Shown: piece after piece, positions 3,105 through 24,729 of the stretch
How positions within the stretch are numbered: position 1 is the first letter of the stretch
Layout: every line of letters starts with the position of its first letter
Virus record (IMG/VR): IMGVR_UViG_3300017917_004576
Location: 32,001 to 96,000 of that record
Direction: 5' to 3' (one strand)
DNA: 64,000 bases
DNA from: a virus
Notes under the pieces: generated by a model
The model's database searches: none
Told to the model about the DNA's origin: nothing
Seen by the model: only the letters and a program-made list of their open reading frames with translations
Translations under genes and position numbers: made by a program

Positions 3105-3107
3105 TAT

Positions 3108-3395: not shown

Positions 3396-4300
3396 AAACA
3401 AAAACTTTTAAGCTCGAAGTTGATGGTGTCGAAAAAGAATTTTTAGTACGAAGCCCAACCTTAGAAAATCAGAGAGAAGCTCAAAAAGTTTATAATCAAG
3501 CTTTTACAGATGCTATTAAAAGTAAAAGTGTTGTACGAGCAAAGCTAGATGATTTATTAGAAGATCAGGGCTTGTGGAATGATGAGAAACAAGCTAAGTT
3601 TACTGAACTACAAAAAGATCTGCTAGATGGAGAAAAAAGATTAGCAAAAGGTGGCTTTAGTTTAAATGAAGCCAAAGATCTTGCTATCAAGATGAAAAGC
3701 ATACGAGATGAAATAAGAGATCTTATTAGCGTAAGAACAAGTTTAGATAATCATAGCGCAGAAGGTCAAGCTGATAATAGTAGATTTAATTATTTAGTTA
3801 GTGTTTGTTTGGTGTATAATGATACTAAACAGCCTGTTTACAAAAATATGGAAGAGTATCTAAATAGCAGCACAGAAAAGGTTGCTATAATGGGCGCTCA
3901 AAATTTAGCTAATATGCTGTATGGTCTTGATAACGATTATGAAAGTAATTTACCAGAAAATAAGTTCTTAAAGAAATTTAAATTTATTGATGAAAAATTA
4001 CGACTAGTAGATAAGAAAGGCAGATTAATAGATAGAGAAGGTAGACTGATCGATGAGAGTGGTCGATTTATTGATGAAGAAGGTAATTTTGTTGATAAGT
4101 TTGGTAACAAAGTAGATAAAGATGGAGAATATTTGGTTGATAGTCAACCATTCCTTGATGAAAATGGAAATCCAATAATATTAGATGAGGAAAAACCCAA
4201 AGATGATAAGGTTGAACCATCAGTTCCAACAGAAAGCCCGGTTGTTCAAGAAGCCCAACCAGTTTCTGCATCAACTGAACAAACAGTGTCAACAACTTGA
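3392..4300 (+). CDS. Putative tail assembly chaperone with C-terminal DxxG heptapeptide repeats
   Basis: 302 aa, immediately upstream of the TMP, GAGGAG RBS. N-terminal chaperone-like start (KTFKLEVDGVEKEFLVRSPT), a coiled coil, then tandem (R/N)-(L/F)-(I/V)-D-x-x-G repeats. Confidence 0.5.
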   Translation: MKTKTFKLEVDGVEKEFLVRSPTLENQREAQKVYNQAFTDAIKSKSVVRAKLDDLLEDQGLWNDEKQAKFTELQKDLLDGEKRLAKGGFSLNEAKDLAIKMKSIRDEIRDLISVRTSLDNHSAEGQADNSRFNYLVSVCLVYNDTKQPVYKNMEEYLNSSTEKVAIMGAQNLANMLYGLDNDYESNLPENKFLKKFKFIDEKLRLVDKKGRLIDREGRLIDESGRFIDEEGNFVDKFGNKVDKDGEYLVDSQPFLDENGNPIILDEEKPKDDKVEPSVPTESPVVQEAQPVSASTEQTVSTT

Positions 4301-4394: not shown

Positions 4395-7300
4395 ATGGCA
4401 CAAGCCTTTAATTTAACCGCACAATTAAATTTGCGTGGACCATCAAATGTTAGGCAAATAGTTTCGGATGTTAAAAAACAACTTGGTACAATTACTGGTG
4501 ATATAAAATTTAATATTGATCCATCAGCAATTAATAATACAACAAAACTTAGTAAATCATTACAACAACTAAGTTCCGACCTATCTTCTGTTTCGTCCAA
4601 CGCTACTGCGGCAGCATCTGCTATTAAAAATTTTGGTCAAAGTATAAATTCTATTAGTAATTCTTCTAATAAATTATCTTCTAATATAAATAAAACAATA
4701 AGTAGTTCTGGTAATTTAGGAACAACAGTAACAAAAACAGCAAAAAATATTTCTGTAGCACGAACAGAGATGGAAGAATTTGGTCGTCAAAGCGCATTAG
4801 CCATTCGTCGTTTTGCTGCATTTAGTGCTGTAACAGGAGTATTTTTTAGTCTTAATAGAGCAATTAATAGCGGATTGAAAAGCTTTATAGAATTTGATAA
4901 AGAATTAGTGCGATTACAGCAAGTTACTGGTCAAAGCGCCGATGGATTAAAAGGACTCCAAGATGAAATTACAAGACTATCAACTGGTCTTGGTGTTAGT
5001 TCTGATAGTTTAATTCAAGTATCATCAACATTAGCTCAGGCAGGATTAAGCGCTAGAGAAACTGAACAGGCCTTAAAAGCATTAGCATTAACAGAATTAG
5101 CGCCTAGTTTTGATGATATTAATCAAACAGTCGAAGGATCTATTGCTCTAATGAGACAGTTTGGCATAGCAGCAAAAGATTTAGAAAAAGCATTAGGTAG
5201 TGTTAATAGTGTTGCAGCAGCTTTTGCTGTTGAGTCTAGCGATATTATTGCGGCTATACAACGAACCGGTGGTGTGTTTGCAACCGCGAGTAAAGGAGTT
5301 AGCGAAGGAGCAGACGCTCTTAATGAATTTATAGCCGTGTTTACTAGTGTTCGTGCCACAACGCGTGAAAGCGCCGAAACAATCGCTACAGGTTTGAGAA
5401 CTATTTTTACACGTATTCAAAGACAAGGTACTATAGAAGCACTCAAAGAATTTGGTGTTACACTGACTGATGCCGAAGGTAAATTTGTTGGTGCATACAA
5501 GGCTGTACAGTTACTTAGCGAAGGATTAAGTAGTATAGATCCTAGAGACATAAGATTTAGCCAAATAGTTGAAGAGCTTGGTGGTTTTCGTCAAATTGGC
5601 AAAGTTATTCCATTGATTCAACAGTTTGCTACCGCACAAGATGCTTTGAGAGTGGCTCAGGCTGGTCAGGGTAGTTTGGCAGCAGATGCTGCTAAAGCAC
5701 AATTAAGTTTAGCCAATCAAATAGCTAAAGTGAGAGAAGAATTTTTAACATTAATTCGTAGTTTGGGACAAAGTGATACTTTTCAAACTTTAGCTAGAGG
5801 AGCATTAACATTTGCTAGTGGTCTTATTAAGATTACAGATGCTGTTAAAGGTGTTTTACCTTCACTTGCTATTTTAGCAGCTGGGGCTAGTTTTAGAGGA
5901 TTAAGTCAATTTACTAGCGGATTTATTGGTGGTTTGAAAAAAGTTCCAAAAGGAGGACCAGGAGCACAACAACCACAAAGCGTGGTTGGTTCTATTGGAA
6001 GAAATATTGGAAGTAGTCTTGTTGGTGCTAAAACAGAACAAGTTAGTAGAGACTTAGATCAAAATAGCGCCGCTCTAGATAAGCTTTCTGGTAAAATAGA
6101 TTCTTTGGTATCTTCAATGTCTTCTATTAATGGCTTAACATCCGGTATAACTGCATTGAATACCAACTTAGTATCTATTAATAGCGCTTTAGCATCATAT
6201 AATTCTGCATTACTAAATAATACCAATGCTTTATCTAGTAATAGTAGCTCTCTAGAGAATGTTTATGCTGCTTTAGTTAATTTAGATGCTACTTTAGATA
6301 GAAAAGATTTCGGAGGCGGTGGACCAACTACTGCTAGTGGTGGTGGTCGTATTTTGGGTTTCTCTAAAGGAGGCAGTGTTCCCGGTAGCGGAAGAGGAGA
6401 TAAAGTACCAGCATTATTAGAACCTGGCGAAGTGGTAATGAGTAATCGAGCTGTTAATAAGTATGGAAGAGGTAATTTGGTTAATATGAATAAAAGATAT
6501 TTTAAAGGAGGTATAGCCCGAGAAAAGCTTCAAACACTAGTTGAAAAAAGCAATAGTATTAAAAAATATATTAATGACACTATCAATCCAGATGATGAAG
6601 CATTAACAAAGATAGTTCCATTTCGTGTTGATCTTGATGATAATGATTTCAGAGAAATGAAACAAATCATGATAGATACTGAAAGGCAAAGACTTAGATA
6701 TTTAGAAACATATCGTGATGATCCCACAGCAAATAAACAAGTGGGACAGAGAGCCAGAAGCAGCAAAGACCCTAGAACAGTTGTTGGATTTCTTGGTCTG
6801 AAAAAACCAGAATCTCATTGGGGTCCAGGTAATGCTTTTCAACAGCATTTAATTAAAAGACTAAATATTTCACCAAGCGATATGCCCCCTAATCTTGGCA
6901 CACCACAAGAACAATTTAAAGATATTATAGACGAACATTATGCTGTTTTAGACTACCAAGACGGTGATGCTAAATTTTGGAAAGATCTAAGTTATTTTGA
7001 TACACAACCCGGAAAAATAGACATACTAAATAAACAATTTAAAAATGTAGTCAATAATAATCAACTAAAACCAAAACCAACCCCAAATTATGAACTTTTT
7101 ACTTTACCGGATACGCGAGTTTATTATCCTGAGATTGGCACAAAAGAACAATTTATGCGAGATTATGCGGCGTTTACCACAGCAGATTATGCAAAAACAC
7201 ATCTTCCAGCAGGAGCTTATTCTATTGGTGGAAAAATTCAAAAATTTGCTGGTGGAGGAGAAGCGCTACAGTCCAAGTTATCAACTATAAGAACTCTTTT

Positions 7301-10300
7301 GGGCGAATTTTATGGAGGTGATGAACAACTTATATCAAAATCAATTTCTAATTCTATGATAATTGATGAGGCTCGTGCTGATAAAATTATTGCTAACTTA
7401 GAATCATCTAGATCACAGTTGCCATTATTTAAAAAACTATTTTCAGAAAAATCGTCTTCTGTTGGTGTTTTAAATGGATTTCCAATAGCCAGGTATGGTG
7501 CTATTGGTGGTACTGAGACTATGAGATTTGATGAACTAAAAGACGAAGAAACTATTAGAGAGTTTATAAAAAGAGGAAAATTAGCAACACAAGCTTCGCG
7601 TGGTCCGGTTGGTAAACGCATAGTTTATGGTGATCAAAAAGCAGCAAGACGAAGGTTTGCGGTTGGCGGAACAGTAGAGGGCATAGCTGCTAAAGAAAAA
7701 AAATCTATTGAAACTGTAATTTTAGAACAATTATCCAGTTTTGGAGATGCTAGCGGAGTTAAAAAAATACTAGGATTAGGAGCTGGAGAAAGAGAGATTA
7801 GCTCTATATTGAATGCTAGTAATATTAGAGCCGGTAAAAACATAGAAAAAGCTATTAAATTTATAAATAGGGCGCTAGCTAAGACAGGAAAACAAGATGC
7901 TGCTAGAGAAGCAAAAGAAGCAGCCATGAGAAAAGTTGCAATTGCCGGATTATTTCCATTAGATTATAATAAAGATTTTTCAGACTGGAAGTTGGAAGAT
8001 GGTAGAGAAATTTATGGTTATGTTAGAGGATTTCAATCTAGCTTTTTACCACAAATAGAAGCTATGCAAGAGGCCAATAGAGCTACTCGTCAAAAATTTG
8101 CTGAAGATATTCAAGATACGGCAGCATTAGGCGGATTAGGTAATAGAAATATTCAGGGGCCAATTCAACCATTAGCAATAGATTTTGATGAAACACTAGC
8201 TCTTGGAACAAAAATGCTAGATGAAAATGGCGAAGAAGATTTACCAGCCTACTCTGATAGAAAAAAAGTTATGGAAAGTCTAGCCCAAGCTAGACCAACC
8301 TCACTAGCTAAAAGATTGGCCAGTATAGAACAAAAAAATCCTGGATATGTTAGGATGTTTAGTCGTATCTTAACGGCCCGTCCTCAAAGTACGGCGGATA
8401 TTATAGCATCAACTCTTAATAGGTTCGGATTACCATATTTAGAACAAGATGTTACTGGAGTTAGTCAAGGACTAGGAACAAATATAGCAAAAGCTAAAGC
8501 CGCTGATGTTGCAAGAGCCGAAAAATTAATCGATGATAATGAAAAAAATATTAGAGCAACAATGGCTGCTGGTAAAAGTACTTTTCGTTATGGTGAAGTA
8601 CCAGAGCTCAAAGGACCAGCAGAAGAAAAATTTGGACAATCTAATATTGAAGGAGGTATGCTAGAAGCAGCATTATCACAATTATTGGGCTATAATATAA
8701 ATGTTGATGCTTTACAAAGAAATAGAGCGATTGATTTTCCTAATGGCCTAGGCAGAGGCGCTCAACTTTTTGGATTACCTCCGAATATTGAAACAGAAGT
8801 AAAAAGAACTTTGGACGGAGACAGTTTTTCAAAAGCCAGAGAAGAATTTAGTAGATACTTTAAAGAAAATCCACAAGCCTTTGCTAAAGGAGGAACAGCA
8901 ACATTTGGTTCTGGAGCATTTAAATTCCCCAAAAGAATAAGTAATGCTTATGTTCGGGAAATGGAAAAATTATTAGAACAAGAACAAATGGAAAAGGTTT
9001 TTTCAACATATCCTGGTAATGAAAGAATGGTTGTGGACGAGGAGGCTGTGAAAAAAGGATATGAATCTCCTTTTACTAGAGAACTATTCATAAATTCGTT
9101 TAAGGATAAAATAAATAGAAATACAGTTTTTGAAAGAATGGGGCAATTTGCGCGAGTTATAGGATTGCCACCCACCGATCTTTTATCTGCAATACCAACT
9201 CAATTAGACTTTGGTGTTAATTATCCTGCTACAGCATTATTTAGCAAGGATCCTTCTGGCCCAGGAACCAGGGGACTACAAGGAGTGGATCTGACACCAT
9301 ATGGTTATACTGAACAAGATAAACAAGATTTATTCGGATATACTAAACTAATAGAAGAAAAAAAGAAACAAATATTAAAAACAATTAAAACTCCTGTTAC
9401 AACATATGAAGATGGTAGTTTTAGCTATGATACGGCTTTAGCAGAAAAACTAAGAGCAGAATTAGACGATTTACAAAAACAACAAAGATCTCTTATTGAT
9501 AAAAACAATGCGGCTATCAAAGCTGCAAAAGAATCCAGACTACAATCCGCAAACCAGAGTGGTCGTGGTAGCGTTGGCATAGCGACGAATCCATTTAATA
9601 CAAGTCAACGTCAAGATTATAGTATTTTGTATCATGAATTAACTCATCAACTTTTTAATAGTCTTAGAACTAAAAACGCTCAATCATTCGAAGCATACAA
9701 GGCAAAAGTTTCTAGTTTATTTAGTGGAAACAATGATGATGTGGCCGATGCTTTTGATGCTCTGGTTGGAAATACAGGATATAATAGTGCTGATGTCGCC
9801 TATGGAAGAAGTTATAAACTTAGTGGACTAAGCAGCTTGATGATAGGATCAGCCAAAGAGTCATTTGCAAAATATGTTAATAGTGATCCAGAATATATTC
9901 CAGAATTAAGAAAAACTTGGGCAGCAACTAATTCTACAACAACCGCCAAAGCTTTTAAACCACTGAATCCTAAAGTTAATGATATTTTATTAAGAGGTAA
10001 AATAAGCCAAGATGTTATAGATAAATATGAAGATAATGGTAAAGAAGAATTTTTAACAACATTAATACAAAAATTACCATTATTAGATGAAAATCTAAGC
10101 GGAGTTTTGGATAGTACTCTGGATGACCTATTGGGAGGTGCTGGAATAAGTAGACAAAAATTTGCTCTCGGTGGATTAGCAGATTCTAAAGATGCTATGT
10201 CTGGATTAATGCAAGGATTATATGGAAATAGAAATCAACAAACAGACAAAAAAGAAAAAGATTTTGGGAAAATAAGCATTACAGAAGATGGCGATATGCT

Positions 10301-13300
10301 TAGTGTTGGATATCTTAAAAATGATAGTAGATCAGGATATGTACAAGCAATGAAATATAAAGATAATCTATGGTATGTTGGATTATCAAAAGCTACTAAA
10401 GGATATGGACCAAGATTGTACGATGTGGCTATGGAGGCTGTTACTGAAAAAGGAGCTATGCTAACTTCTGACAGAAGCATGGTTAGCGCGGATGCTCAAA
10501 AGGTTTGGGCTTATTATTTTAAAAATAGAGGAGATGTTAAAAAAACACCATTAGAACCAGAAAATTGGACTAAAAATCAAGCACTAATAGACCCTAAGCT
10601 TTATGGAAGAAGAGAAACATGGCCACCAGCAACCGATCCGGCTTGGATACTACAGAGCGGCTATAGTAAGAGCCCTACCTTGCTTAATGATCCAGAACAA
10701 GTAAAAAGAAATAATAATAAAGCAAAAAAACCTATTGATTCTAGAAGCATGGCTCTATCATATTTTCAAAGAGCCGATGGCGGACCAATAAGCCGTTTTG
10801 CTGATGGTGGTTCTGTTCCGGCCTTAGTAAGTAACGGCGAAGCTTATGTGCCTCCTAAACTTGCTAAACGTATTGGTTACGGAACACTAGATCGTATGAA
10901 TCAAGCTGATAAAAATGGTATGGGGCGATTTAGTGATGGTGGAATTAGCGTATTTAAGGGACCGGGAAGTGGAACTAGCGATAGCATACCCACAAATCTA
11001 CCAGTAGGAAGTTTTATAATAAGAGAAAAGGCCACTAAAGCACTAGGTTTAAATAGTGGTGGTATTGTTGGAATAAGAAGATTTAAAGACGGTGATAAGG
11101 TTTCTTATGGAAGAAAAGACACAACTGGTATTCGGATGCCCATGCCTGATCTTGGATTTCTAAAGACAAGCGCAATATTATTAGTAGATAGCTTTAGAAC
11201 TACAGAACAAATGATAAGTAATAGCTATTCAGCCTGGCAAGAGATAGACAAAGTGGCTCCGATTTTAGCAAAGACTTTAGATAGATATTATAGTACTATC
11301 GATGCAACATTAGATGATGCTAGTTTGATGGTGCAAAGCTACCGTGCAGTAGTCGTGTCTTTGGCTAAACAAGGAAAAACAACGGCAGAAGTTGATGCTA
11401 TAATGACTCATTATATTGATGCTCTAAATAAAGCAATAGATACATATCAAAATCCTGCCCCTATAGAGTCTCCAAAATCAACAACAACATATACAGTTAC
11501 TCCACCACGCCCTCGTCGCAGAAACAGATCTTCTTTATCACCAACCCCACCTCCCGTACCCAAATCTGCCGAGCAAAAACTAGCAGCAGTAGAAAACGAA
11601 GCAATTGCTCAAAGAATAGAGTCAAAAGAAAGAATCAAATCAGAATATGACCCATTATACAGAGCAGCATCGTCCAGAGAAGATAAGCAAGCGATACAAG
11701 ATGAAGCTAGGCTAAAATTTCAAGCTGTTGATGCTACCATACAGGCCAATAAAGCTGCTCAACAACAAATAATACTACAAGAACTATTGGCTCAAAGAGC
11801 TAAAGAAGCTAATCAATCCACAGAAGAATATATATCTGGGTTACAACAAGAAATTGATACTAGATCAATCAATATTATGGAGCAAGATTTTAGCAATGTA
11901 CTAGGACCAGATGTGCCGTCCACACAAGAAGCAAGACAACAAGCACTTAGCGAGACTATTAGATCTAGAGGACTACAAGCATTTGATGTGACTGATCTAG
12001 GACAAGGCACCAATATAAAAGATATAATATCACAAATTTCCGAAACAAAAAATAAGGCCCAGGCTGCTGCCACAGCGAACGATTATTTGGCTTTGAGAGC
12101 AAGACTAGCCGGACAAAGTCTTGAGGAATATTCTCAGTCATTATCTGATCAGGCTTTAAATTTAGCTGAACAATTTAAGAATAATCTTCCTAGAGCTTTA
12201 GATAGTTTTCAAGAACAATTATTTGATGCTAAACAAAGTCTTGAAAATATAAGCGCTAGAGAAGCAAAAGGAGAATATGCTAATCAAGAAGGACAAGAGA
12301 GAAAAGCTATAGATATTTCACAACTAGAAGAAAGTATAGGAGATACTCTTGAAAATATTCTAGGAGAAAATTTTTCTGGAGATGATAGAAATAAAATATT
12401 ACAAGATATTATGGAAAAGCTAAAAAATGCTGATTCAACACAAGCTTTTAATGTTCAAAGTCTTTCCGACGCTATAAAACAAATATCAACCGATGAAGCA
12501 ATAGCTTCAAGAGCAACAGCAACAGTCGCTGCCCAAAATAAAATACAACCAAATCAAATTACAGGAGCTACAGCAGAAGCTCTAAAATCCAGAGGAGAAA
12601 CTCAACAACTATTTAAGGAAATCGATAAAATATCTGCAAAATTTAGTAAATTTGGTTTAGCTATAGGAGCTGCTGGTAGCGTTATAGCTAAATTTATAGA
12701 TGCAACAGAAAGTAGAAGTGCAGCGATGGCAGCGGCAGCAATTTCTGGTGGCACATCCACAGCTTCCACGCTAGCAGTTGGTGTTGGACAAGGTCTTCAA
12801 ACTTTAAAAGATTTATCTGATCCTAAAGGATTATTTGGTAACACTGGTATAGGAAAATTGGCTGGATCAGTATTGCCTGGTCTCAAAGAAGTATTGACCG
12901 GTCCTTTCGGAATAATTGCTGGGGCGGGGATCTCTTTAGCAGCAGCTTTTAAAGATGCTTACAATGCGGCACGAGAATTTGATAAGCAGCTAAATACTAA
13001 AACTGTTGAAAATAGTTTGAGTAAAGTTGGCACAATGTTTGATCAGTTTGGTAAAGATATGAGTCAGAAAGATTTGCTTGGAGATATCAGCAAAGAATTA
13101 AACACTGCTATATCAGCCGCTATGAAAAATATTAATATCGATGCCACTGTACCAAAAATGTTTTGGGTTAATATGATAGATGCTGCTATGGGCGGAAGCG
13201 AAGCTGCTCAACGAAGTATAGTTCTTGAAAAACAAGGAGTTGGTGCTTATTTTAATACTATTATGCCAGGAGGGAATCAGCAGTTGGAATCGTATATGTC

Positions 13301-16300
13301 CGATCTTGCTCCACAATTAGCATCCCAACAATCTGCTTCCCTAAAACCAGCTGCTGAAAACGCATTTAGATTATTTGAGCAACAATTACGAACAGGAAGT
13401 TCGTCAGATGACATAATGGATCAACTTAAAACAGCAGGAGGAGGAGTATCACAATTTGCCACAGCTATTGCTCGTTCTAATCCTATTATAGAAGAACAAA
13501 TTATTAAAACTCAAGCACGAGCAGATATAAGCGATACCGAGAAACAAAAAATTGTTGATAGTATAATTGCTAGAGAAGCAGAAAAACAAACTATACTAAA
13601 TACCACAGCAACTCTTAGACAAATAGAATTTGAAAAATTAAATAAGGGAACAGACTCATTTGTTAATAGTTTGGAAAGAATCTATAGCAATATGGAAATG
13701 AGTATAAATAAGGCTAGTTTCGATATTCAAAAACTATCAGCAAGTGCCGATCTTGCATCAGAAGCTTTGAGTGGAAATGCTAAAGCCGGACAGATTAATT
13801 TAGAAGCTATTAATGTATTACAAAATAGAAGAGCATATTCACCAGAACAACAAAATCAAGCTGTTGACTTAGCTGGATCTTTTTTTGGATCAACTAGTCC
13901 CGCTATATCATCAATACTTAATATTGGAGATAAATTAGAAAGTACTATTTTACAAACCATCAATAGAACACGCGGTGCCGAGCCAGGAGCAACCAACGAA
14001 CGAGTATTGGCCAGTATAAGATCAGCTCTTGATAGACAACTAACCGATTTACAAATACCAGATAGTCTGGTTCCATCCATTAGCAATCAAATAAGGGATG
14101 CTCTCAAAGACATATCAACACAAGGAGATCTAGATACTGTTAATTTTAATGAAATAGCAGAAAAAGTTCCGGCGCTAACCAAACAAATTGATGCTGCTAG
14201 ACGAGCACAAGAAACTGCTGTTAGAGCATTAGAGTTTTATCAATCTCAATTAAATGAGTATGCTAATGCTATGAATAGTATGGTAGAGTTGCAATTTAAT
14301 GCTAGTAAAGATTTTGCTAGAGCATCGGATATTATAAGTAGCTCATCTGATGAATTATCTAAAGCTTTTGGTAGAGAAATTAGCTTGAGAGATACTTTAA
14401 CACAGTCTTTGGGTAAAACACGAAGACAAACAGGAGGAGCAACAGATCCTGTTGATATATCTAGAAATATTACAAATTTAGAAAATTCTAGAAAAATTTT
14501 ACAAGGAGCTTCGGAGACCGCCGCAGCAAAAGGACCAGCTGCTCAAGACGAATTTAAAATCATGCAAGATAGGCTTCGCAATAATAATTTGGCATTACGA
14601 CAAAATTTCGATGCTCTAAAAAATTTAGCAGATAGTAGTGAAATAGCTAGCGCTGCATTAAATAAAATACAAGAAATTCAACAAAGAAGACAGGCCGGTG
14701 CTAATCTTATCGAAAAACTTGTAACATCTAGTCCAGAAGAAATTAATAAACTTAATAGTGCCATAGCTAGATTACAAAATAATATGATGGGAGTTGCTAA
14801 TGTTGGAACCACAAGCGAACAGCGAGGAGAGAGTCTACAAGCATTTAATATGATAGCTCCATTATTAGGAGAAGGAGCTAAACAAAATGAATTAAGAGCT
14901 AATGTGCTAGAAAGTATGTTGCTTGAAAGCGGACAGGGCGTCAACCCAATGTTTGCACAAGTTTTAGATAGTTTACGAAATCCGGAAGGTGATCCGGAGA
15001 TGCAAGAGGCTATTAGCGTCTATAAAGAAGGCGTTAATTTACAAGCTAGTGCAAATTCTAGACTTGGCGAAATTAAACAATTAATGTTGGAAAATACAGC
15101 AGATGCTGCTGCCGAGAAATTAAAAGTTGCTATGCAAGGAGTAAAGTTTACATTTGAAGAAACAGTATTAAGTGATATTAGATCAGAAATTATTAACTTA
15201 AAGAAGTTGGTTGAGAAAAGAGGACCCGCTGCTGCTGGATTAGCAAATGGCGGAATAGTTTATGCTAGTAATGGAAGAATGATTGATTTTCAATCTAAAG
15301 GCACAGATACTGTACCAGCTATGTTAACGCCAGGAGAGTTTGTTGTAAATAGAGCCTCAACAAAACGCAATCTTCCATTATTACAAAGTATAAATAAAAA
15401 TAAGGGAGGTAAAGTTAATTATTTAGCCGATGGTGGGATTGTGCCTGGTTTTGGTTGGTCAAATAGAAAAACAGAAACTGAATTACGAAGAAATAGAACA
15501 GATACCGACCTAGAGACCCAGGATAGATTTATGGTTTTTCAAGACGATAAAGATCCTACATCAAGGAATGATAATTTTAAAGAATATATTATTGGACCAG
15601 CAGTATCATATAAACAAGGACCAATCCCGGAAGAAAAAATTACAGGCGGCGAGTTGAAAAATCTCTCGGTATTGCAAAACAGTACTAGAATACATAATGA
15701 TACTCCTGGTTTTTTTCTCAAGACTATAAAAACCTTTTATTCTGGTAGTTCAGACGAATATGGGCGCACAGCACTCCCGATTGTTTTGAAATCTGACAGC
15801 TCTATATCTGAAGAATTTAGAAGAGGTCTTAAAAATATTACATTATTTCAAAAACCAGAAATAATATCAAAGCAGAAACGCTTGGTCATGCCACAAATTG
15901 AAAAATATAAAGAATATTATTCTAAATTAATTACTAAGCTAGATAATAATATTAATTTTAAAGATATTATCGAAAATACTCCAAAAGACACATCAGATGT
16001 TAGCATTAAATTAAATAATAGTACTCCGTATAATGTTGAGACTACGATAGATAATTTATCTAGTATTTCTAAAGATAAAAAATATTTATTGGATTCTAAT
16101 ATTAATGATTTTGTAAAGGATGCTCTGTATCCTTTATTTACTCCAGGATCCACAGTTCCAGCAGGATGGACAGTTAATAATAAAGACTATTCTAATAGTA
16201 AAGATTTGGCCTCTAAGATCAAACCAGAAATACTTCCAAAAGACTACGATCTGATTGATATTGTTAAAGAAAATTTAGACCGTTTAAAAAGAATAGATAT

Positions 16301-19300
16301 TAATAATCCTAGATTTTTTCAAGAAACACAAGGATCACAAAATAGAAAAGAAAATGTCAGTTTATTAAAAGATTTTTATGACGGTAAACTATTTTCGATA
16401 CAATTGGATGATTCTGTTTTAGATGGGGAAAAAGCTAAAGGTAAATCTTTACCATTAACTTTATATAATATAAATAATGAACAAGATTGGTTAGATAAAA
16501 TTAGAAATTATCAAGATGAATTAGACAAGATTGATCCGGAAATGCTTTCCAAAACCCTTCCTATCAATCCTACTAATTTTATTAGATTAGATGATAAAAT
16601 AAATAGAAGTAGTAAGATTTTTCCATGGACAGGAAAGGATTTTAATAGTATAACTAAAATTGATTCAGAAAACTTTGTAAAAGATTCAAGAGGATCTTTC
16701 TTAAAAAACCAGTATTTCGGACCCATAACAACAGAAAACCAAGGAGACGAAAAATCTGGCTTGATGTTTCCTTATAAAATAGTTTCTAAAGGAACGACAT
16801 ATGATGAGTCTATAAGAGGTTTTGATCGGCCTTTAGAAAAGTACATGGTAATATCTTCTGATACAAAAAATGAAACAGCACCCTTCGCTAATTTAACTAA
16901 ATCACTTTATATTCCCGCTACTAATTGGGATGATTTTATCATAGATCTTAAATCACAAATAGAGGCTAATCAAAAAGATCCGACTACTGGATATGATTTT
17001 AATTATGCTTTTAATCCTGTTAATTCAGATTTAAATAAATATATGTCAGCCCCTGACATTAGACAAGCGCAAGAAAACCATGCTATTGTACCATCAACAG
17101 ACGGTACTTTGAATGTAAATGATATATTTTTTAGAAATCAAGCTTATTCTGATTTTCTAAATAAAAAAGAAGCAGAAGAAGCCCAAAGTAAAGCTATAGA
17201 TAGTGCAAAGAAAAAATTTAGAGTAACACTAGAAGATACAGAAGCTTTTACAAACGCTAAAAAAGTTGGCGTTGCACGAGCACTATTTGATATTGGCAAA
17301 AAGCAACTAGGACTAACATCATCAAAACCAACTAATTTGGATGGTGTTCGCTCTGTTATATCGGAATTGAGTCAGAAAGCAACACAGTTGTCTAAAAACT
17401 TCTCTAAAGCAGCTCCAAATCAAAGAATTACTAATCCACAGTGGTTAATGAATGATGCTTATAGAGCATTTTTTGTAGAATTATATAAAGGACAATACTC
17501 TGGCAAAGACGATGATACTCCTCAATTTTTGAAAGGATTAGGATTGCCAATAGATGATGCTGATTTTGGTCCCGGAGCAAACCCTATCGATGTTCCTGGT
17601 TTTAGAGGCAAAAAAGAGTCACCATATCGAGACTATAATGCAGCCGCTTTAGGTCGAGCTCAAACTGCTATTAAAAATATTATTAATCGAGAAATAGCAA
17701 TGAAAAGCGGAACCGCTTTTGCTGGAAAATTAAGCGATGAAGATAAACAAAAACTTAAAATTAGTAGTTCAGATGCTAGAATCTATAAGGAAGGTAGTGA
17801 TACTTTTTATCAGCCGGGCGAAGATATTGTACCTAAGTCATATCAACAAGTTGCTGAAATTGGATTAAATCCAAGAAATGTATTTCCTACCGAAACTTTT
17901 AGAAGTGATAACTATTTAAATGCTTTACAGGAATTATATAAAACAGGAACGGATCAAAATGGAAATCTTGTATTCAATTATGGAGATCCGTCAGCCTTAA
18001 CAGCAGCTAAAAGTATTGATATATTAAAAAATTGGTATACAAATTATCAGGATAAATATTTAAATTTAGGAGCAGATTTTGCAGAATCTCAAGTATCCTT
18101 ACAGGACGCAGCAACACAAGCAGATCTTAATGCTTACAAAGAATCAACAGCCCAGCCAGCTCATGCTTTTTTGACAGGAAATAAATACGGAGTATTACCC
18201 GATAGTAATCGTTTATTAGATCAAATTCAACTAGAGATCAAGGAACCAATTAAGAGAGCAAGAGGTGGATTAATATATGCCTCGAATGGAACATTGGTAA
18301 ACTTTCAACCAAAAGGAACCGATACTGTTCCTGCTATGCTAACTCCTGGCGAATTTGTTGTAAATAGAGCAGCAACACAGAAAAATTTACCATTATTACA
18401 GAGTATTAACAGCGGTAAATATGCAAATGGAGGTGTTGTATATGCTCAGAATGGAGGCAGTATTAGGTCTCAAAGTTTTTCTTCAGGTGACGATGATAGC
18501 GAGACAATAAATGCTATTTATACTGTGACCAAGGCAACTCTTTCTGGAAATAATAGATTAAATCAATTAATTATTTTGACTAATGATATTATTAAAAATC
18601 TTCAAGCTCTAATAGACACTAATAGTTATCTTATTCCTATTAATAGTAATGTACAAGATCTTACTAGTTATATAAAAACAATAGATTTTTGCTGCAGAGA
18701 TTCTGTATCATCTTCTGAAGATAGACCTAAGGATGTACAGGATTCAGCACCAGAAGGATCAGGAGAACCACCACAGATACCTCGTCCAGTTTGGTTAGAT
18801 GAATTAAATAATATTCCAAAACCATCTTGGCTGCCTATTAATATGGAGCCTAATTATCCAGAGTGGTTGCCTATTATAATAGATAGACCAATTTGGCTCG
18901 ATGAGCTAACCAATTTAAATAAAACCATCACAATAGAGCCAAGTTTTGAGATTCCTATTCCATTAGAAAAATTTGGTTGTTGTAAAGATGAAACTGGTCA
19001 ATCCATAACCCCATTACCTAGATATCCAGAAGATCCTAATCAACCTATTACTCCATTACCAACAGTTAAGCCACCCATCTTTGCGGAGTCTTCGTATCAG
19101 CCTGGAGAAAAACAATTATCTGCTAAAGATTTTCCATATGATATAGATGTTCCGAAACAAATAGACATCGCTCCTGCTATGCCGTCCAGAAATAGTAGGA
19201 TGGACGATGTTGACGAAAGACTAGGCGTTAATACGCCAGAACAAAGTAGAAGATATTGGGCAGAAGAAGAACGGGCAGTAGATGACCGTAAAAGAGTAAG

Positions 19301-21155
19301 AGAAGAAACCAATACGAATAGGGCTTCAAGATCATTGGATGTTCTTAAAGGGACAGTTGGGGCAAAAGATGCTGCATATTCAACTATAGAGACTATACAA
19401 GCATTACAAGAAGGTAGAGGATTGGACGCTGCGATTGGTGGTTTATCTATGATTGAAAATATTAGTAATATTAGTCCATTAAAAATGGGACCTGTTGGTG
19501 ATATTGCTGGTATAGCGGGATCGGCGACAAACATTGCAAGGGGCATATATGAAGCTACTGGTGGAAATTTTGACAGACTACAGGAACAAGGACTTAGTGA
19601 TGCATTAAACATAGCACAAAACACATCCTCACTAGCTGGAACAACAGGATTATCAAAAAATTTAGGAATCGCTGGAGTTGTTTTACAAACTGGCAAAGAT
19701 GTTTATGAAGAGATTACTTCTACGCCAGATACTGTTGATGCTCAACAAAGAGGTATAGTAGAACGAGGTCTTTTAGCAGCTACCACAGGAAGCGGAGATG
19801 TTGGAGGATCAGATTTAGCAAAACTAGTAGGTTTTGAGCGGGATAGTTCTGCAGATATCATGGCTGCTTATTATGAGAATGTATTAAGTAAAACAGCACA
19901 AGGGGCAACGGTTGGTGGTGTTCCAGGAGCTATAGTTGGATTAAGCACAGCTACCGCTGGAGAGGTTTATAAAGCAGGATCTGGTCTTGCAAGAGATACA
20001 TCTGTCGCTAGAGAATCTCAGGCCAAAACAGATAGAATGTTAGAAGAAAGCAAAACCAAAGAATATGTAGTGGACGACCAGGGGCTTTTAACCCAAGTAG
20101 ATAAAAAATCAGATGATTGGAGTATGGGCATAGATATAAGCACAGAATCAGCTATTAAAGAAGTGGCTATACTTCAGGATAGAATACAAGAACTTGAATC
20201 TGCTCAAAATACGGGATCCTTAAGCTATGATAATCAGGATATAGCATCAGCAATATCGCTAGAACAAGAAAAACTAGGCTTAGCACAACAAAGATTACAG
20301 AATCTAGCCGTTCAACAAGTAGATCAAGAGAATTGGACATTCTCCGAGCTCGGTACAGATAGTCCAGAAGTTAAAGCTAGATTAGACGAATTTAATAGTA
20401 GATTAGCAGCAGCAATAGATCAACTTGGTTTAGACATAGTAAATAATTTGGATCAAGCCAAATTAGAACAACCTGTTACCAAAAACAAAGGAGGATTGAT
20501 TTATGCTAGTAATGGAACATTAGTTAATTTTAGACCAAAAGGAACAGATACCATACCAGCCATGTTAACTCCTGGTGAATTTGTTATAAATAGAAATTCA
20601 ACACAAAAATATAGACCAGTATTAGAAGCTATCAACAATGGTAATTACAATAGAGGCGGAATAGTTAATTATCTTAATAAGGGTGGATATATTCCAGAAT
20701 ATAAATTTATTGGTGGATTAATGGGATCTGCAGGATCTGCTATCCCATCCTTTGATTTTACTAAATATCTGAATAGTCTGGTTGGATCTATTAGTAGTAG
20801 TATAACAGAAGCTTTCGATAAAGCAGTATCTAGCCTAAAACAACCAAACAATGCTGCTGGTGGTGTATCTAATAACGGGGCCGATCTTACTAGTATTGAT
20901 AATTTTGTTAATAGATTAAATAATATTGCTAATATACTTAGTAATATTTATATACCACCACAAATTACTATAACAGGAAAACATGATGTTGTTGTCACAA
21001 TTAATGGAGATACAGTATTGAATCAATTGCGTCCGGATATAGCCGGAATAGTTATATCTGCTATTAGAGGGGCGTTTGCGGATCTTAAAGCAAAAAATCC
21101 AGAAAATAATACTATTGATTTTAATATAGATATAGATCCTAGAAGATTTACATAA
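4395..21155 (+). CDS. Giant tail tape-measure protein (5586 aa) with embedded enzyme-like cargo domains
   Basis: N-terminal TP901-like TMP core (FIEFDKELVRLQQVTG...LAQAGLSARE...ETIATGLRTIFTRIQ), Ala/Gly-rich hydrophobic segments, repeated TMP-type motifs GTDTVPAMLTPGEFVVN and FAxGG. Located after tube and chaperones. Confidence 0.85.
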   Translation: MAQAFNLTAQLNLRGPSNVRQIVSDVKKQLGTITGDIKFNIDPSAINNTTKLSKSLQQLSSDLSSVSSNATAAASAIKNFGQSINSISNSSNKLSSNINKTISSSGNLGTTVTKTAKNISVARTEMEEFGRQSALAIRRFAAFSAVTGVFFSLNRAINSGLKSFIEFDKELVRLQQVTGQSADGLKGLQDEITRLSTGLGVSSDSLIQVSSTLAQAGLSARETEQALKALALTELAPSFDDINQTVEGSIALMRQFGIAAKDLEKALGSVNSVAAAFAVESSDIIAAIQRTGGVFATASKGVSEGADALNEFIAVFTSVRATTRESAETIATGLRTIFTRIQRQGTIEALKEFGVTLTDAEGKFVGAYKAVQLLSEGLSSIDPRDIRFSQIVEELGGFRQIGKVIPLIQQFATAQDALRVAQAGQGSLAADAAKAQLSLANQIAKVREEFLTLIRSLGQSDTFQTLARGALTFASGLIKITDAVKGVLPSLAILAAGASFRGLSQFTSGFIGGLKKVPKGGPGAQQPQSVVGSIGRNIGSSLVGAKTEQVSRDLDQNSAALDKLSGKIDSLVSSMSSINGLTSGITALNTNLVSINSALASYNSALLNNTNALSSNSSSLENVYAALVNLDATLDRKDFGGGGPTTASGGGRILGFSKGGSVPGSGRGDKVPALLEPGEVVMSNRAVNKYGRGNLVNMNKRYFKGGIAREKLQTLVEKSNSIKKYINDTINPDDEALTKIVPFRVDLDDNDFREMKQIMIDTERQRLRYLETYRDDPTANKQVGQRARSSKDPRTVVGFLGLKKPESHWGPGNAFQQHLIKRLNISPSDMPPNLGTPQEQFKDIIDEHYAVLDYQDGDAKFWKDLSYFDTQPGKIDILNKQFKNVVNNNQLKPKPTPNYELFTLPDTRVYYPEIGTKEQFMRDYAAFTTADYAKTHLPAGAYSIGGKIQKFAGGGEALQSKLSTIRTLLGEFYGGDEQLISKSISNSMIIDEARADKIIANLESSRSQLPLFKKLFSEKSSSVGVLNGFPIARYGAIGGTETMRFDELKDEETIREFIKRGKLATQASRGPVGKRIVYGDQKAARRRFAVGGTVEGIAAKEKKSIETVILEQLSSFGDASGVKKILGLGAGEREISSILNASNIRAGKNIEKAIKFINRALAKTGKQDAAREAKEAAMRKVAIAGLFPLDYNKDFSDWKLEDGREIYGYVRGFQSSFLPQIEAMQEANRATRQKFAEDIQDTAALGGLGNRNIQGPIQPLAIDFDETLALGTKMLDENGEEDLPAYSDRKKVMESLAQARPTSLAKRLASIEQKNPGYVRMFSRILTARPQSTADIIASTLNRFGLPYLEQDVTGVSQGLGTNIAKAKAADVARAEKLIDDNEKNIRATMAAGKSTFRYGEVPELKGPAEEKFGQSNIEGGMLEAALSQLLGYNINVDALQRNRAIDFPNGLGRGAQLFGLPPNIETEVKRTLDGDSFSKAREEFSRYFKENPQAFAKGGTATFGSGAFKFPKRISNAYVREMEKLLEQEQMEKVFSTYPGNERMVVDEEAVKKGYESPFTRELFINSFKDKINRNTVFERMGQFARVIGLPPTDLLSAIPTQLDFGVNYPATALFSKDPSGPGTRGLQGVDLTPYGYTEQDKQDLFGYTKLIEEKKKQILKTIKTPVTTYEDGSFSYDTALAEKLRAELDDLQKQQRSLIDKNNAAIKAAKESRLQSANQSGRGSVGIATNPFNTSQRQDYSILYHELTHQLFNSLRTKNAQSFEAYKAKVSSLFSGNNDDVADAFDALVGNTGYNSADVAYGRSYKLSGLSSLMIGSAKESFAKYVNSDPEYIPELRKTWAATNSTTTAKAFKPLNPKVNDILLRGKISQDVIDKYEDNGKEEFLTTLIQKLPLLDENLSGVLDSTLDDLLGGAGISRQKFALGGLADSKDAMSGLMQGLYGNRNQQTDKKEKDFGKISITEDGDMLSVGYLKNDSRSGYVQAMKYKDNLWYVGLSKATKGYGPRLYDVAMEAVTEKGAMLTSDRSMVSADAQKVWAYYFKNRGDVKKTPLEPENWTKNQALIDPKLYGRRETWPPATDPAWILQSGYSKSPTLLNDPEQVKRNNNKAKKPIDSRSMALSYFQRADGGPISRFADGGSVPALVSNGEAYVPPKLAKRIGYGTLDRMNQADKNGMGRFSDGGISVFKGPGSGTSDSIPTNLPVGSFIIREKATKALGLNSGGIVGIRRFKDGDKVSYGRKDTTGIRMPMPDLGFLKTSAILLVDSFRTTEQMISNSYSAWQEIDKVAPILAKTLDRYYSTIDATLDDASLMVQSYRAVVVSLAKQGKTTAEVDAIMTHYIDALNKAIDTYQNPAPIESPKSTTTYTVTPPRPRRRNRSSLSPTPPPVPKSAEQKLAAVENEAIAQRIESKERIKSEYDPLYRAASSREDKQAIQDEARLKFQAVDATIQANKAAQQQIILQELLAQRAKEANQSTEEYISGLQQEIDTRSINIMEQDFSNVLGPDVPSTQEARQQALSETIRSRGLQAFDVTDLGQGTNIKDIISQISETKNKAQAAATANDYLALRARLAGQSLEEYSQSLSDQALNLAEQFKNNLPRALDSFQEQLFDAKQSLENISAREAKGEYANQEGQERKAIDISQLEESIGDTLENILGENFSGDDRNKILQDIMEKLKNADSTQAFNVQSLSDAIKQISTDEAIASRATATVAAQNKIQPNQITGATAEALKSRGETQQLFKEIDKISAKFSKFGLAIGAAGSVIAKFIDATESRSAAMAAAAISGGTSTASTLAVGVGQGLQTLKDLSDPKGLFGNTGIGKLAGSVLPGLKEVLTGPFGIIAGAGISLAAAFKDAYNAAREFDKQLNTKTVENSLSKVGTMFDQFGKDMSQKDLLGDISKELNTAISAAMKNINIDATVPKMFWVNMIDAAMGGSEAAQRSIVLEKQGVGAYFNTIMPGGNQQLESYMSDLAPQLASQQSASLKPAAENAFRLFEQQLRTGSSSDDIMDQLKTAGGGVSQFATAIARSNPIIEEQIIKTQARADISDTEKQKIVDSIIAREAEKQTILNTTATLRQIEFEKLNKGTDSFVNSLERIYSNMEMSINKASFDIQKLSASADLASEALSGNAKAGQINLEAINVLQNRRAYSPEQQNQAVDLAGSFFGSTSPAISSILNIGDKLESTILQTINRTRGAEPGATNERVLASIRSALDRQLTDLQIPDSLVPSISNQIRDALKDISTQGDLDTVNFNEIAEKVPALTKQIDAARRAQETAVRALEFYQSQLNEYANAMNSMVELQFNASKDFARASDIISSSSDELSKAFGREISLRDTLTQSLGKTRRQTGGATDPVDISRNITNLENSRKILQGASETAAAKGPAAQDEFKIMQDRLRNNNLALRQNFDALKNLADSSEIASAALNKIQEIQQRRQAGANLIEKLVTSSPEEINKLNSAIARLQNNMMGVANVGTTSEQRGESLQAFNMIAPLLGEGAKQNELRANVLESMLLESGQGVNPMFAQVLDSLRNPEGDPEMQEAISVYKEGVNLQASANSRLGEIKQLMLENTADAAAEKLKVAMQGVKFTFEETVLSDIRSEIINLKKLVEKRGPAAAGLANGGIVYASNGRMIDFQSKGTDTVPAMLTPGEFVVNRASTKRNLPLLQSINKNKGGKVNYLADGGIVPGFGWSNRKTETELRRNRTDTDLETQDRFMVFQDDKDPTSRNDNFKEYIIGPAVSYKQGPIPEEKITGGELKNLSVLQNSTRIHNDTPGFFLKTIKTFYSGSSDEYGRTALPIVLKSDSSISEEFRRGLKNITLFQKPEIISKQKRLVMPQIEKYKEYYSKLITKLDNNINFKDIIENTPKDTSDVSIKLNNSTPYNVETTIDNLSSISKDKKYLLDSNINDFVKDALYPLFTPGSTVPAGWTVNNKDYSNSKDLASKIKPEILPKDYDLIDIVKENLDRLKRIDINNPRFFQETQGSQNRKENVSLLKDFYDGKLFSIQLDDSVLDGEKAKGKSLPLTLYNINNEQDWLDKIRNYQDELDKIDPEMLSKTLPINPTNFIRLDDKINRSSKIFPWTGKDFNSITKIDSENFVKDSRGSFLKNQYFGPITTENQGDEKSGLMFPYKIVSKGTTYDESIRGFDRPLEKYMVISSDTKNETAPFANLTKSLYIPATNWDDFIIDLKSQIEANQKDPTTGYDFNYAFNPVNSDLNKYMSAPDIRQAQENHAIVPSTDGTLNVNDIFFRNQAYSDFLNKKEAEEAQSKAIDSAKKKFRVTLEDTEAFTNAKKVGVARALFDIGKKQLGLTSSKPTNLDGVRSVISELSQKATQLSKNFSKAAPNQRITNPQWLMNDAYRAFFVELYKGQYSGKDDDTPQFLKGLGLPIDDADFGPGANPIDVPGFRGKKESPYRDYNAAALGRAQTAIKNIINREIAMKSGTAFAGKLSDEDKQKLKISSSDARIYKEGSDTFYQPGEDIVPKSYQQVAEIGLNPRNVFPTETFRSDNYLNALQELYKTGTDQNGNLVFNYGDPSALTAAKSIDILKNWYTNYQDKYLNLGADFAESQVSLQDAATQADLNAYKESTAQPAHAFLTGNKYGVLPDSNRLLDQIQLEIKEPIKRARGGLIYASNGTLVNFQPKGTDTVPAMLTPGEFVVNRAATQKNLPLLQSINSGKYANGGVVYAQNGGSIRSQSFSSGDDDSETINAIYTVTKATLSGNNRLNQLIILTNDIIKNLQALIDTNSYLIPINSNVQDLTSYIKTIDFCCRDSVSSSEDRPKDVQDSAPEGSGEPPQIPRPVWLDELNNIPKPSWLPINMEPNYPEWLPIIIDRPIWLDELTNLNKTITIEPSFEIPIPLEKFGCCKDETGQSITPLPRYPEDPNQPITPLPTVKPPIFAESSYQPGEKQLSAKDFPYDIDVPKQIDIAPAMPSRNSRMDDVDERLGVNTPEQSRRYWAEEERAVDDRKRVREETNTNRASRSLDVLKGTVGAKDAAYSTIETIQALQEGRGLDAAIGGLSMIENISNISPLKMGPVGDIAGIAGSATNIARGIYEATGGNFDRLQEQGLSDALNIAQNTSSLAGTTGLSKNLGIAGVVLQTGKDVYEEITSTPDTVDAQQRGIVERGLLAATTGSGDVGGSDLAKLVGFERDSSADIMAAYYENVLSKTAQGATVGGVPGAIVGLSTATAGEVYKAGSGLARDTSVARESQAKTDRMLEESKTKEYVVDDQGLLTQVDKKSDDWSMGIDISTESAIKEVAILQDRIQELESAQNTGSLSYDNQDIASAISLEQEKLGLAQQRLQNLAVQQVDQENWTFSELGTDSPEVKARLDEFNSRLAAAIDQLGLDIVNNLDQAKLEQPVTKNKGGLIYASNGTLVNFRPKGTDTIPAMLTPGEFVINRNSTQKYRPVLEAINNGNYNRGGIVNYLNKGGYIPEYKFIGGLMGSAGSAIPSFDFTKYLNSLVGSISSSITEAFDKAVSSLKQPNNAAGGVSNNGADLTSIDNFVNRLNNIANILSNIYIPPQITITGKHDVVVTINGDTVLNQLRPDIAGIVISAIRGAFADLKAKNPENNTIDFNIDIDPRRFT
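15240..20720 (+). repeat. Three dispersed ~65-aa repeats in TMP (about 15240-15437, 18255-18458, 20480-20720)
   Basis: GG(I/L)(V/I)YASNG..(I/V)(D/N)F..KGTDT(V/I)PAMLTPGEFV(V/I)NR..T.....L..IN occurs three times, with mostly synonymous nucleotide differences. More divergent copies are at about 6351-6512 and 10770-11090. Confidence 0.9.
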
Positions 21156-21156
21156 T

Positions 21157-24717: not shown

Positions 24718-24729
24718 TAGGAATTAAAT

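Follow-up and report, generated by a model that had tools for sequence, protein, structure and literature searches.

Putative exchangeable cassettes between recurrent joints in a giant phage tape measure protein

We analyzed a 64,000-nucleotide (nt) stretch of virus DNA (hereafter the window, to which all positions refer unless stated otherwise), representing bases 32001-96000 of one 120,068-bp contig with a G+C content of ~33% (IMG/VR record IMGVR_UViG_3300017917_004576), and studied a single open reading frame (ORF; 4395-21155, plus strand) that encodes a tape measure protein (TMP) of 5,586 amino acids (aa). Our results suggested that this TMP and its giant relatives are built from a conserved scaffold and inserted cassettes, with a joint at every junction, and that the cassettes are carried into the host by the tail; we consider this interpretation, taken as a whole, fairly probable.

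The identity of the protein as a TMP, which the preliminary description of this DNA had proposed from its letters, was well supported. PF10145 (PhageMin_Tail/TP901-type) matched aa 189-384 with 81.7 bits (cut-off 33.2; E 8.3e-23), and ten PHROG tape-measure families matched the first 660 residues, which include the canonical N-terminal TMP core (core 1; aa 1-646, 4395-6332). Judged from these sequence matches, the protein appears to be a genuine tail TMP of an uncultured tailed phage with a genome of ~120 kb. The size of the ORF (16.8 kb) was the sole reason to ask whether it might be an assembly chimera or a readthrough of several genes under a wrong genetic code, and nothing was found in favor of this idea. 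The frame is open under translation table 11 with zero internal stops, the same end-to-end scaffold was found in more than 100 independent relatives from metagenomes (3,000-7,900 aa), and one internal segment (S4, see below) was found in 12 IMG/VR loci at 92-95% identity; an artefact is, in our view, practically negligible.

Joints, scaffold and exchanged segments

First, the short motif [FYLR][AS].GG was found 13 times in the protein, at aa 656, 942, 951, 1088, 1496, 1923, 2126, 2135, 2179, 3616, 3677, 4621 and 4676 (nt 6360, 7218, 7245, 7656, 8880, 10161, 10770, 10797, 10929, 15240, 15423, 18255 and 18420, respectively), compared with a mean of 1.09 in 500 shuffles (standard deviation 1.07, maximum 5). 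Both this recurrence of FAxGG-type motifs and the presence of longer G.D.VPA.L.PGE blocks had been noticed in the preliminary description, and the blocks were recovered as well: the strict pattern G.D.[VI]PA.L.PGE occurs at aa 3636, 4641 and 5383, looser copies occur at aa 666 and 2193, and a profile of the block detected six copies. The first of them (aa 647-709, 6333-6521; profile E 1.2e-13) includes FSKGG and YFKGG and also matches phrog_35029 (E 4.2e-11). Two degenerate copies (aa 2137-2184 and 2179-2238) occupy a joint region at aa 2126-2238 (10770-11108), which contains RADGG, FADGG, FSDGG and LNSGG and has mostly low values of the predicted local distance difference test (pLDDT). The remaining three, at aa 3616-3683 (15240-15443; E 1.4e-32), aa 4620-4692 (18252-18470; E 2.4e-36) and aa 5362-5434 (the terminal block, 20478-20696; E 7.7e-35), are the best matches and form a family of 178-nt direct repeats at 15229, 18244 and 20470 with a DNA identity of 68-74%.

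The full joint is a block of ~65 aa reading GG-(I/V)-(V/I)-Y-A-S-N-G ... G-T-D-T-V-P-A-M-L-T-P-G-E-F-V ... GG, and the reduced joint is either GGxVQKFAxGG or FAxGG; outside the long blocks, the consensus is GG-x-V-Q-K-F-A-x-G-G-x-V (472 instances). An alignment of 17 block copies (3 from this gene and 14 from relatives, picked for diversity among 357 strong instances) had 15 invariant columns in source proteins that are otherwise 30-50% identical. Four joints are short: the full short joint YSIGGKIQKFAGGG (aa 942-955, 7218-7259), which fits GGxVQKFAxGG, FAVGG (aa 1088-1092, 7656-7670), FAKGG (aa 1496-1500, 8880-8894) and FALGG (aa 1923-1927, 10161-10175). The ends of high-scoring segment pairs (HSPs) with relatives fall at query residues 1086-1094 (in many relatives), 1494-1500 and 1927-1930 for the last three, respectively.

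Second, two alignments of matched substrings of relatives, covering aa 1490-2245 (19 rows) and aa 695-1502 (22 rows), were folded with AlphaFold. In both models the joints have pLDDT values below 50 (for example at FAKGG, and at model residues 236-260 for the full short joint) and folded domains stand in between. The joints are thus predicted to lie in flexible linkers, and the earlier proposal that the motifs delimit modules agreed with these models. When three copies of the joint block were predicted as a complex, the score was 0.02 against a mark of 0.42, which gives no verdict either way.

Third, we compared the protein with other giant TMPs. A search with query residues 600-5586 against targets of 3,072-9,776 aa scored 1,116 candidates, of which 183 had E<=0.001; this set is biased to proteins with words in common with the query. 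All family counts in this text rest on 120 listed proteins of the 183, i.e. the query and 119 relatives. The family ranges from ~3,000 to ~7,900 aa, and the source contigs reach ~250 kb. The 120 proteins contain a median of 11 strict motifs (range 3-22), compared with 1.41 in shuffles, and a median of five blocks (range 2-10), the last of which ends a median of 147 aa before the C-terminus. Coverage by BLASTP was high (~85-110 relatives) at the joints, in the N-terminal 500 and C-terminal 230 residues and in residues ~2750-3680, and low (5-18 relatives) for residues 750-1100, 2250-2550, 3700-3950 and 4750-5300. When the 120 proteins were cut at motifs and blocks, the resulting 966 segments of at least 80 aa fell into 255 clusters, including 168 singletons. 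The clusters of core 2, core 1 and segment S3 were present in the great majority of proteins (103, 102 and 100 of 120, respectively), and those of S4, S5 and S7 in about three tenths (37, 37 and 34 of 120). No within-protein duplication was observed in the main cassette clusters, segment and protein counts being equal in most clusters, and the presence or absence of S3, S4, S5, S7 and S8 was mutually independent among the relatives.

Individual relatives illustrate how the segments differ. In P0004, the match to query residues 934-1928 is followed, gap-free in its own sequence, by that to residues 2129-3683, and P0003 and P0009 are alike; all three lack the GNAT-like segment S5, with both edges of the deletion at joints. 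P0002 has 259 other residues in place of S5. The order of segments also changes, as S4 precedes S3 in at least eight relatives (P0012, P0022, P0024, P0028, P0036, P0059, P0076 and P0096). Domains absent from the query are placed in the same manner: the ADP-ribosyltransferase domains of relatives sit inside motif-bounded intervals, and SNase and EF-hand domains were also found among relatives in precomputed Pfam annotations. In general, 28.9% of the 1,018 ends of HSPs of at least 150 aa lay within 12 aa of a strict motif, compared with a mean of 5.8% (maximum 23.7%) for random motif placements, and none of 5,000 such placements reached 28.9%. A larger set that included short HSPs gave 41.6% of 2,434 ends, a figure that is inflated because block-to-block paralogue matches are included and that is superseded by the set of at least 150 aa. 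These alignments show that the scaffold (two ruler cores and the C-terminus) and the joints are conserved, and that the joints are the breakpoints at which segments have been gained or lost, exchanged for others or put in a different order. This agrees with what had been expected of the aligned TMPs of relatives, namely that the content between motifs varies while motifs and cores are kept, and that domain boundaries coincide with the motifs.

A further expectation, that the segments between motifs are globular and unlike TMPs, needed correction. It holds for the folded cassettes described below, but not for aa 2239-3615 (11109-15239), which is ruler-like, is shared by the 103 proteins mentioned above, and contains the most hydrophobic segment of the whole protein by hydropathy (aa 2832-2852). 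We regard this region, on its sequence features, as a second ruler core (core 2) rather than cargo.

The earlier idea that the joints serve as DNA homology anchors for swapping was weakened. The short joints share a longest common run of 12 nt, with a mean identity of 0.48 over 30-nt windows, and DNA identity between the long blocks is no higher than 68-74%; with these values, DNA-homology-guided recombination between joints is unlikely to be the main mechanism. A better fit is illegitimate or orthologous recombination, after which in-frame junctions located at domain boundaries would be selected.

Content of the cassettes

The most widespread cassette, S3 (aa 1093-1495, 7671-8879), is predicted with confidence (model residues 396-804) to consist of an N-terminal subdomain, a HAD phosphatase domain and a small C-terminal module. 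For the HAD domain (aa ~1254-1401, 8154-8597), VIA, an aligner independent of Foldseek, placed the 3'-phosphatase of T4 Pnkp at the top (5uj0_B; Z 10.7, root-mean-square deviation (rmsd) 3.5, 125 of 142 residues aligned), followed by T4 PNK (1ltq_A, Z 9.8) and bacterial Pnkp1 (4xrp_A, Z 9.5). A value of Z>=8 was reached by 13 chains, and all but one of the 13 rows listed above Z 8.2 were HAD-type enzymes. The top Foldseek rows for S3 were also mostly HAD enzymes, with a probability of 1.00 for AphA (E 1.2e-3) and PSP. HAD enzymes have four motifs, DxDxT (I), T/S (II), K (III) and DD (IV), and the corresponding residues are conserved here: D1263, D1265 and T1267 in 17/17 rows, T1327 in 17 rows, K1368 in 19/19 and D1380/D1381 in 16-17/19, the catalytic Asp and Thr being invariant in homologues down to 29% identity (17/17). 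No Pfam HAD model matched this protein, and one of 22 homologues matched Acid_phosphat_B (E 0.047); the domain is therefore assigned by fold at the superfamily level. With this limit, fold and catalytic residues confirm the HAD call that had been made from the letters: the center of S3 is a capless HAD phosphatase of the T4 Pnkp 3'-phosphatase type, and its active site is intact.

As a separate observation, the alignment consensus of 37 giant relatives revealed a P-loop cassette (G-x-A-G-S-G-K) in many of them, which this protein does not have. Beside a Pnkp-like phosphatase, such a cassette might represent the kinase half of an enzyme for end healing.

The small module at the end of S3 (aa ~1408-1495, 8616-8879) is covered by ~100 of the 119 relatives and stands alone in several of them (query residues 1411-1500). 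It has an E..E..D..(E/D)xK pattern, in which E1419, E1424, D1447, E/D1468 and K1470 are mostly conserved. PD-(D/E)xK nucleases have an alpha-beta-beta-beta-alpha-beta core with D...(D/E)xK. A fold of this kind, as suggested earlier, was not seen: the model has few and short strands, and no nuclease row was present in the HAD-dominated structure lists.

S4 (aa 1501-1922, 8895-10160) is mostly helical and modelled with pLDDT values mostly above 90. It contains HExxH at aa 1747-1751, within model helix 253-271, and a downstream EE at aa 1884-1885; H1747, E1748 and H1751 were present in 10/10 rows, and E1884/E1885 were invariant. These residues are what would be expected of the zincin proposed earlier, but three structure searches, in which matches to a helical hairpin took up the lists, gave no convincing zincin row. 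The sole metallopeptidase row was 1yqy_A (Z 6.9, rmsd 10.1, with the multi-domain model). In the ESM Atlas, the best S4 match scored 0.87, below the trust line, and a lead to LPD23 (score 0.85, 18% of cluster members) was below this line too. Among 1.84 billion representative proteins, 40 relatives of S4 were found, 31 of them longer than 2,700 aa and nine shorter than 800 aa. We regard S4, as modelled, as a confidently predicted, family-specific domain with an invariant HExxH.

S5 (aa 1928-2125, 10176-10769) appeared to have a GNAT-like fold, for which support was moderate. The best matches were 3lod (Z 7.3, 109/145 aligned) and 5trm_C (Z 7.1, 115/159), both below the caution line of Z 8, and further GNAT rows had Z values of 5.9-6.2; all of them lie on model residues 464-608 and cover most of the target chain. 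Foldseek gave GNAT rows with probabilities of 0.97-0.99 on 66-68 columns. Motif A of GNAT enzymes has a glycine pattern for acyl-CoA binding, and G2003 and G2005 were found in 12/12 rows. The GNAT call made earlier from the letters is moderately supported.

The other cassettes have fewer features. S2a (aa 710-941, 6522-7217) and S2b (aa 956-1087, 7260-7655) are rare, each having its cluster in 4 of 120 proteins; the former was modelled from a shallow alignment with pLDDT values mostly below 60, and the latter is predicted to be a small helix/hairpin domain (pLDDT ~70-85). S7 (aa 3684-4619, 15444-18251) has a non-helical composition and gave no Pfam match and no usable ESM Atlas match. S8 (aa 4693-5361, 18471-20477), which clusters with the C-terminus in 7 of 120 proteins and is covered by ~8 of 119 relatives, holds all four cysteines of the 5,586-aa protein as two CC pairs (aa 4766-4767 and 4862-4863; 18690-18986) that are 96 residues apart. 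In profile searches of three alignments against PDB sequences, no match had an E-value below 0.04, and these searches did not retrieve lambda gpH either. Foldseek searches of the PDB with both multi-domain models gave no row at E<=0.001, the HAD and GNAT rows having high probabilities and weak E-values.

The cassettes could instead be mainly spacers that tune tail length to the host envelope, with enzyme features as relics of captured genes. TMP length sets tail length, as stated for the 5,002-aa TMP of Thermus phage P23-45 in the available text of its description (PMC10770324), the family spans a wide range of lengths, and S2a, S7 and S8 are without recognizable enzyme features. A paper on cyanophage CL131 provided a tail length for that phage but nothing on a relation to its TMP. 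However, the HAD residues are kept in 17/17 rows down to 29% identity, HExxH in 10/10 and the GNAT GxG in 12/12; the modelled cassettes are compact folds, not extended helices; and no cassette type is duplicated in the main clusters, although length tuning would favor duplications. We therefore consider the spacer explanation very improbable.

The joint in ordinary tape measures and its possible roles

The block matched the C-terminal parts of several PHROG tape-measure families and was present in 67 cultured-phage records; among the matches listed, all of the annotated ones (28/28) are in TMP genes, two records being unannotated. The TMPs of Shewanella phage S0112 (934 aa) and Burkholderia phage SBP39 (940 aa) have a single block, with FADGG or FSEGG and FATGG beside it, at a distance of 60-70 aa from the C-terminus. 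In lambda gpH, aa 752-785 matched the block profile in a one-sequence search (17.0 bits, E 1.8e-7) between FATGG (aa 733) and YATGG (aa 778), and the block lies in or beside the C-terminal part that is lost by the maturation cut. T5 pb2 is described, in the part of the source available, as being cut after R1127, between a hydrophobic stretch and the muralytic domain, to give pb2* and pb2C (PMC10038345). This cut falls inside RAEGG, one of only two strict motifs in the 1,219-aa protein, directly after the Arg. On sequence grounds, the joint is a module carried once near the C-terminus by ordinary TMPs, in the part of the protein that contains the cuts of lambda gpH and T5 pb2.

Some cultured phages have more than one copy. 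The TMP of Gordonia phage Shlim410 (~2,180 aa) has three significant blocks and six strict motifs, which indicates that multi-joint tape measures occur in culture; Gordonia phage Howe likewise has three such blocks and six motifs. The TMP of Nodularia phage vB_NpeS-2AV2 (3,404 aa) has two tandem blocks at ~aa 1002-1116, far from the C-terminus.

The position of the T5 cut inside a motif, together with the nature of the joint as an ordinary C-terminal module, raises the odds that joints are cleaved, an idea that had already been put forward for the GG motifs. By analogy with these phages, proteolytic cutting at the joints of the giant TMP may occur, and we rate it as possible but rather doubtful. 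Its extreme form would be an injected polyprotein, in which a conserved protease, identical in activity to the one behind the maturation of lambda gpH and T5 pb2, cuts every joint, free enzymes enter the host before the DNA does, and this payload is re-equipped by swapping at the joints. Here, the payload would comprise a phosphatase for RNA-end healing, an acetyltransferase and a metalloprotease; in relatives, it would include ADP-ribosyltransferases and nucleases. We consider this complete version unlikely.

Alternatively, the joints could be structural. Each would combine a short strand between flexible Gly-Gly hinges with a small conserved module for a constant binding partner, for example sister chains, the tail assembly chaperone or the inner wall of the tube; unrelated domains would be threaded serially through the lumen, and the uncut chain would present its cassettes tethered to a membrane-spanning TMP channel. 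The 15 invariant columns of the block alignment would fit binding to a constant partner, and paralogous copies within this one gene have been kept as protein while their DNA diverged to 68-74% identity. The predicted flexibility of the joints, the description of P23-45 gp96 as active while fused to its TMP (available text of PMC10770324), and the failure to find a protease here, for which no aimed search was made, point in the same direction. On the other hand, the sole mapped TMP cut, that of T5, lies in the motif, lambda gpH is cut in the same region, and a pure hinge would not require the conserved Phe-Ala before GG. We give this explanation a limited chance, and keep it as a tentative alternative.

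Returning to a scaffold with inserted cassettes, several steps can be pictured. TMPs follow a ruler rule of ~1.5 Å per residue, and a tail measured by the whole chain would be ~0.8 µm long. As in other long-tailed phages, the TMP may fill the tail lumen in an extended or partly unfolded form; folded domains of 20-45 kDa on three or six chains cannot lie side by side in the lumen, so that unfolded storage has to be assumed, which is a burden on this reading. On infection, the TMP would be expelled ahead of the DNA, and the cassettes would reach the host envelope or cytoplasm, where they may refold and act early, e.g. by healing the ends of cleaved RNA or by modifying proteins. The joints may be maturation or release sites for a protease, as T5 and lambda suggest. 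The conserved C-terminal end (aa 5435-5586, 20697-21152), which is covered by 37-107 of 119 relatives along its length, may be held in the tail tip, by analogy with the available descriptions of lambda and T5 (PMC12617516, PMC10038345). On this reading, the tail probably carries ready-made enzymes into the host, which is close to the delivery role suggested in the preliminary description.

Besides the problem of space, a number of observations weigh against this interpretation. Pfam searches with nine pieces of the protein recognized the TMP core alone and no cassette, and even at E<=5, with all members of both folded alignments, no family was matched by more than one member. S2a, S7 and S8 have no assigned fold. 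S4 is without relatives outside giant TMPs, and would accordingly not come from a general effector pool and could be structural; moreover, a HExxH cassette that is present in 37 of 120 proteins cannot be the general processing protease. No protease was identified, and no search of the genome aimed at proteases was made. As to the cultured models, lambda gpH matures to gpH* and gpHC with cut site and protease unreported in the available text of PMC12617516, the block profile did not match T5 pb2, and the T5 cut motif has Arg where the giant-TMP family mostly has Phe, Tyr or Leu.

If the interpretation is true, a large clade of uncultured phages with genomes of 100-250 kb would use the tail ruler to deliver changeable, pre-made enzymes. 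These would act before phage gene expression, at the stage when host defences, among them tRNA or mRNA cleavage, restriction and abortive infection, are decisive. The maturation cut of lambda and T5 TMPs would gain a function, revealed by the same joint in multiplied form, and the injected polyprotein, if real, would be a phage counterpart of effector-loaded secretion systems. A 2023 survey reported a mosaic signal in TMPs with no case confirmed in its available text (PMC10684548); the present family would supply genuine cases of TMP domain shuffling. The joints mark natural domain boundaries and could guide the engineering of cargo into phage tails in laboratory systems of phage and bacterium.

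Genomic setting and comparison with known systems

Upstream of the TMP gene, on the same strand of the contig, are genes for the large terminase, the portal and a minor capsid protein, and also for a homing endonuclease and for fibre proteins that have Mtd_N domains. The homing/HNH endonuclease (566 aa, genome positions 15211-16911; phrog_3339, E 3.3e-62) is located between putative capsid and fibre genes, and three large fibre-like proteins (genome positions 17627-26200), two of which have the Mtd_N (major tropism determinant N-terminal) domain, precede the tail genes. The immediate neighbors of the TMP gene had no family matches except FGE-sulfatase-like and fn3 domains downstream. The product of the next gene (21157-24717; 1,186 aa), in which aa 860-1014 form an FGE-sulfatase/C-type-lectin-like domain (PF03781, E 1.2e-9), is probably a distal tail or receptor-binding protein. 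Further downstream, two more giant ORFs of 2,246 and 2,704 aa (33573-40313 and 40310-48424) are translationally coupled; Pfam gave no match to either at E<=0.001. From 48792 to the end of the window, all ORFs of at least 100 aa are on the minus strand, with the sole exception of an overlapping ORF at 57765-58094 (plus strand), and G+C content drops to 24-27% at 50-56 kb. The strand switch near 48.8 kb is probably the boundary between the structural module and an early/replication module. In a tblastn search of 50,697 phage records, the best cultured matches to the TMP core were SPbeta-like tape measures (26% identity over 57% of the query), and by this measure there appears to be no close cultured phage.

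Enzymatic parts inside a tape measure have precedents. The TMPs of mycobacteriophage TM4 and other phages contain embedded cell-wall hydrolase motifs, and SPbeta YomI is annotated as a transglycosylase/TMP. These proteins target peptidoglycan at entry, unlike the present case, in which the recognizable folds (Pnkp-like phosphatase and GNAT here, ADP-ribosyltransferase in relatives) are of cytoplasmic types, numerous and exchangeable. Lambda gpH shares the joint block, with its flanking FATGG and YATGG, near the C-terminal cut region, but has one copy and no inserted cassettes in its 853 aa. In T5 pb2, as far as the available source describes it, a cut in the motif splits a C-terminal enzyme domain from the ruler; there is one cut and one cell-wall-degrading enzyme, no match to the block profile, and Arg at motif position 0.

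A known system of similar size is that of Thermus phage P23-45, whose 5,002-aa TMP, gp96, has an N-terminal virion RNA polymerase that transcribes pre-early genes according to the available text of PMC10770324. This protein, and those of P74-26, G20c and TSP4, resemble ours in being giant TMPs with a built-in intracellular enzyme that enter the host from a very long tail, and P23-45 gp96 indicates that a route for delivery of TMP-borne enzymes exists. They differ in having one N-terminal enzyme, the available text describing neither a joint array nor cassette shuffling. No Thermus phage was found among the 67 records with the block.

Polyvalent proteins (Iyer et al. 2017) contain many effector-type domains, with proposed co-delivery with DNA and release by built-in metallopeptidases (available text of PMC5512222). 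The likeness lies in the presence of several unrelated effector-type domains in one phage polypeptide (HAD, GNAT-like and HExxH here, and ADP-ribosyltransferase, SNase and EF-hand in relatives). In contrast, tape measure proteins are mentioned 0 times and no conserved joint is described in the available text of that paper, and the Pfam signature domains of polyvalent proteins (MPTase and LPD families) matched neither this protein nor the members of the folded alignments. Sle1-type effectors of actinobacterial contractile injection systems, which are related to TMPs according to the part of PMC13277306 available, likewise have an exchangeable functional domain on a carrier derived from a TMP and are packaged in a tube resembling a tail; as described there, they belong to a bacterial injection system and have one variable C-terminal domain rather than an array on a phage ruler. 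In a search that left subscription literature mostly outside, we found no description of a joint-delimited, shuffled array of cytoplasmic-type enzyme cassettes in a TMP. TMPs with embedded enzymes and one giant TMP-enzyme fusion are already known, and the joint-delimited cassette array would be the new part.

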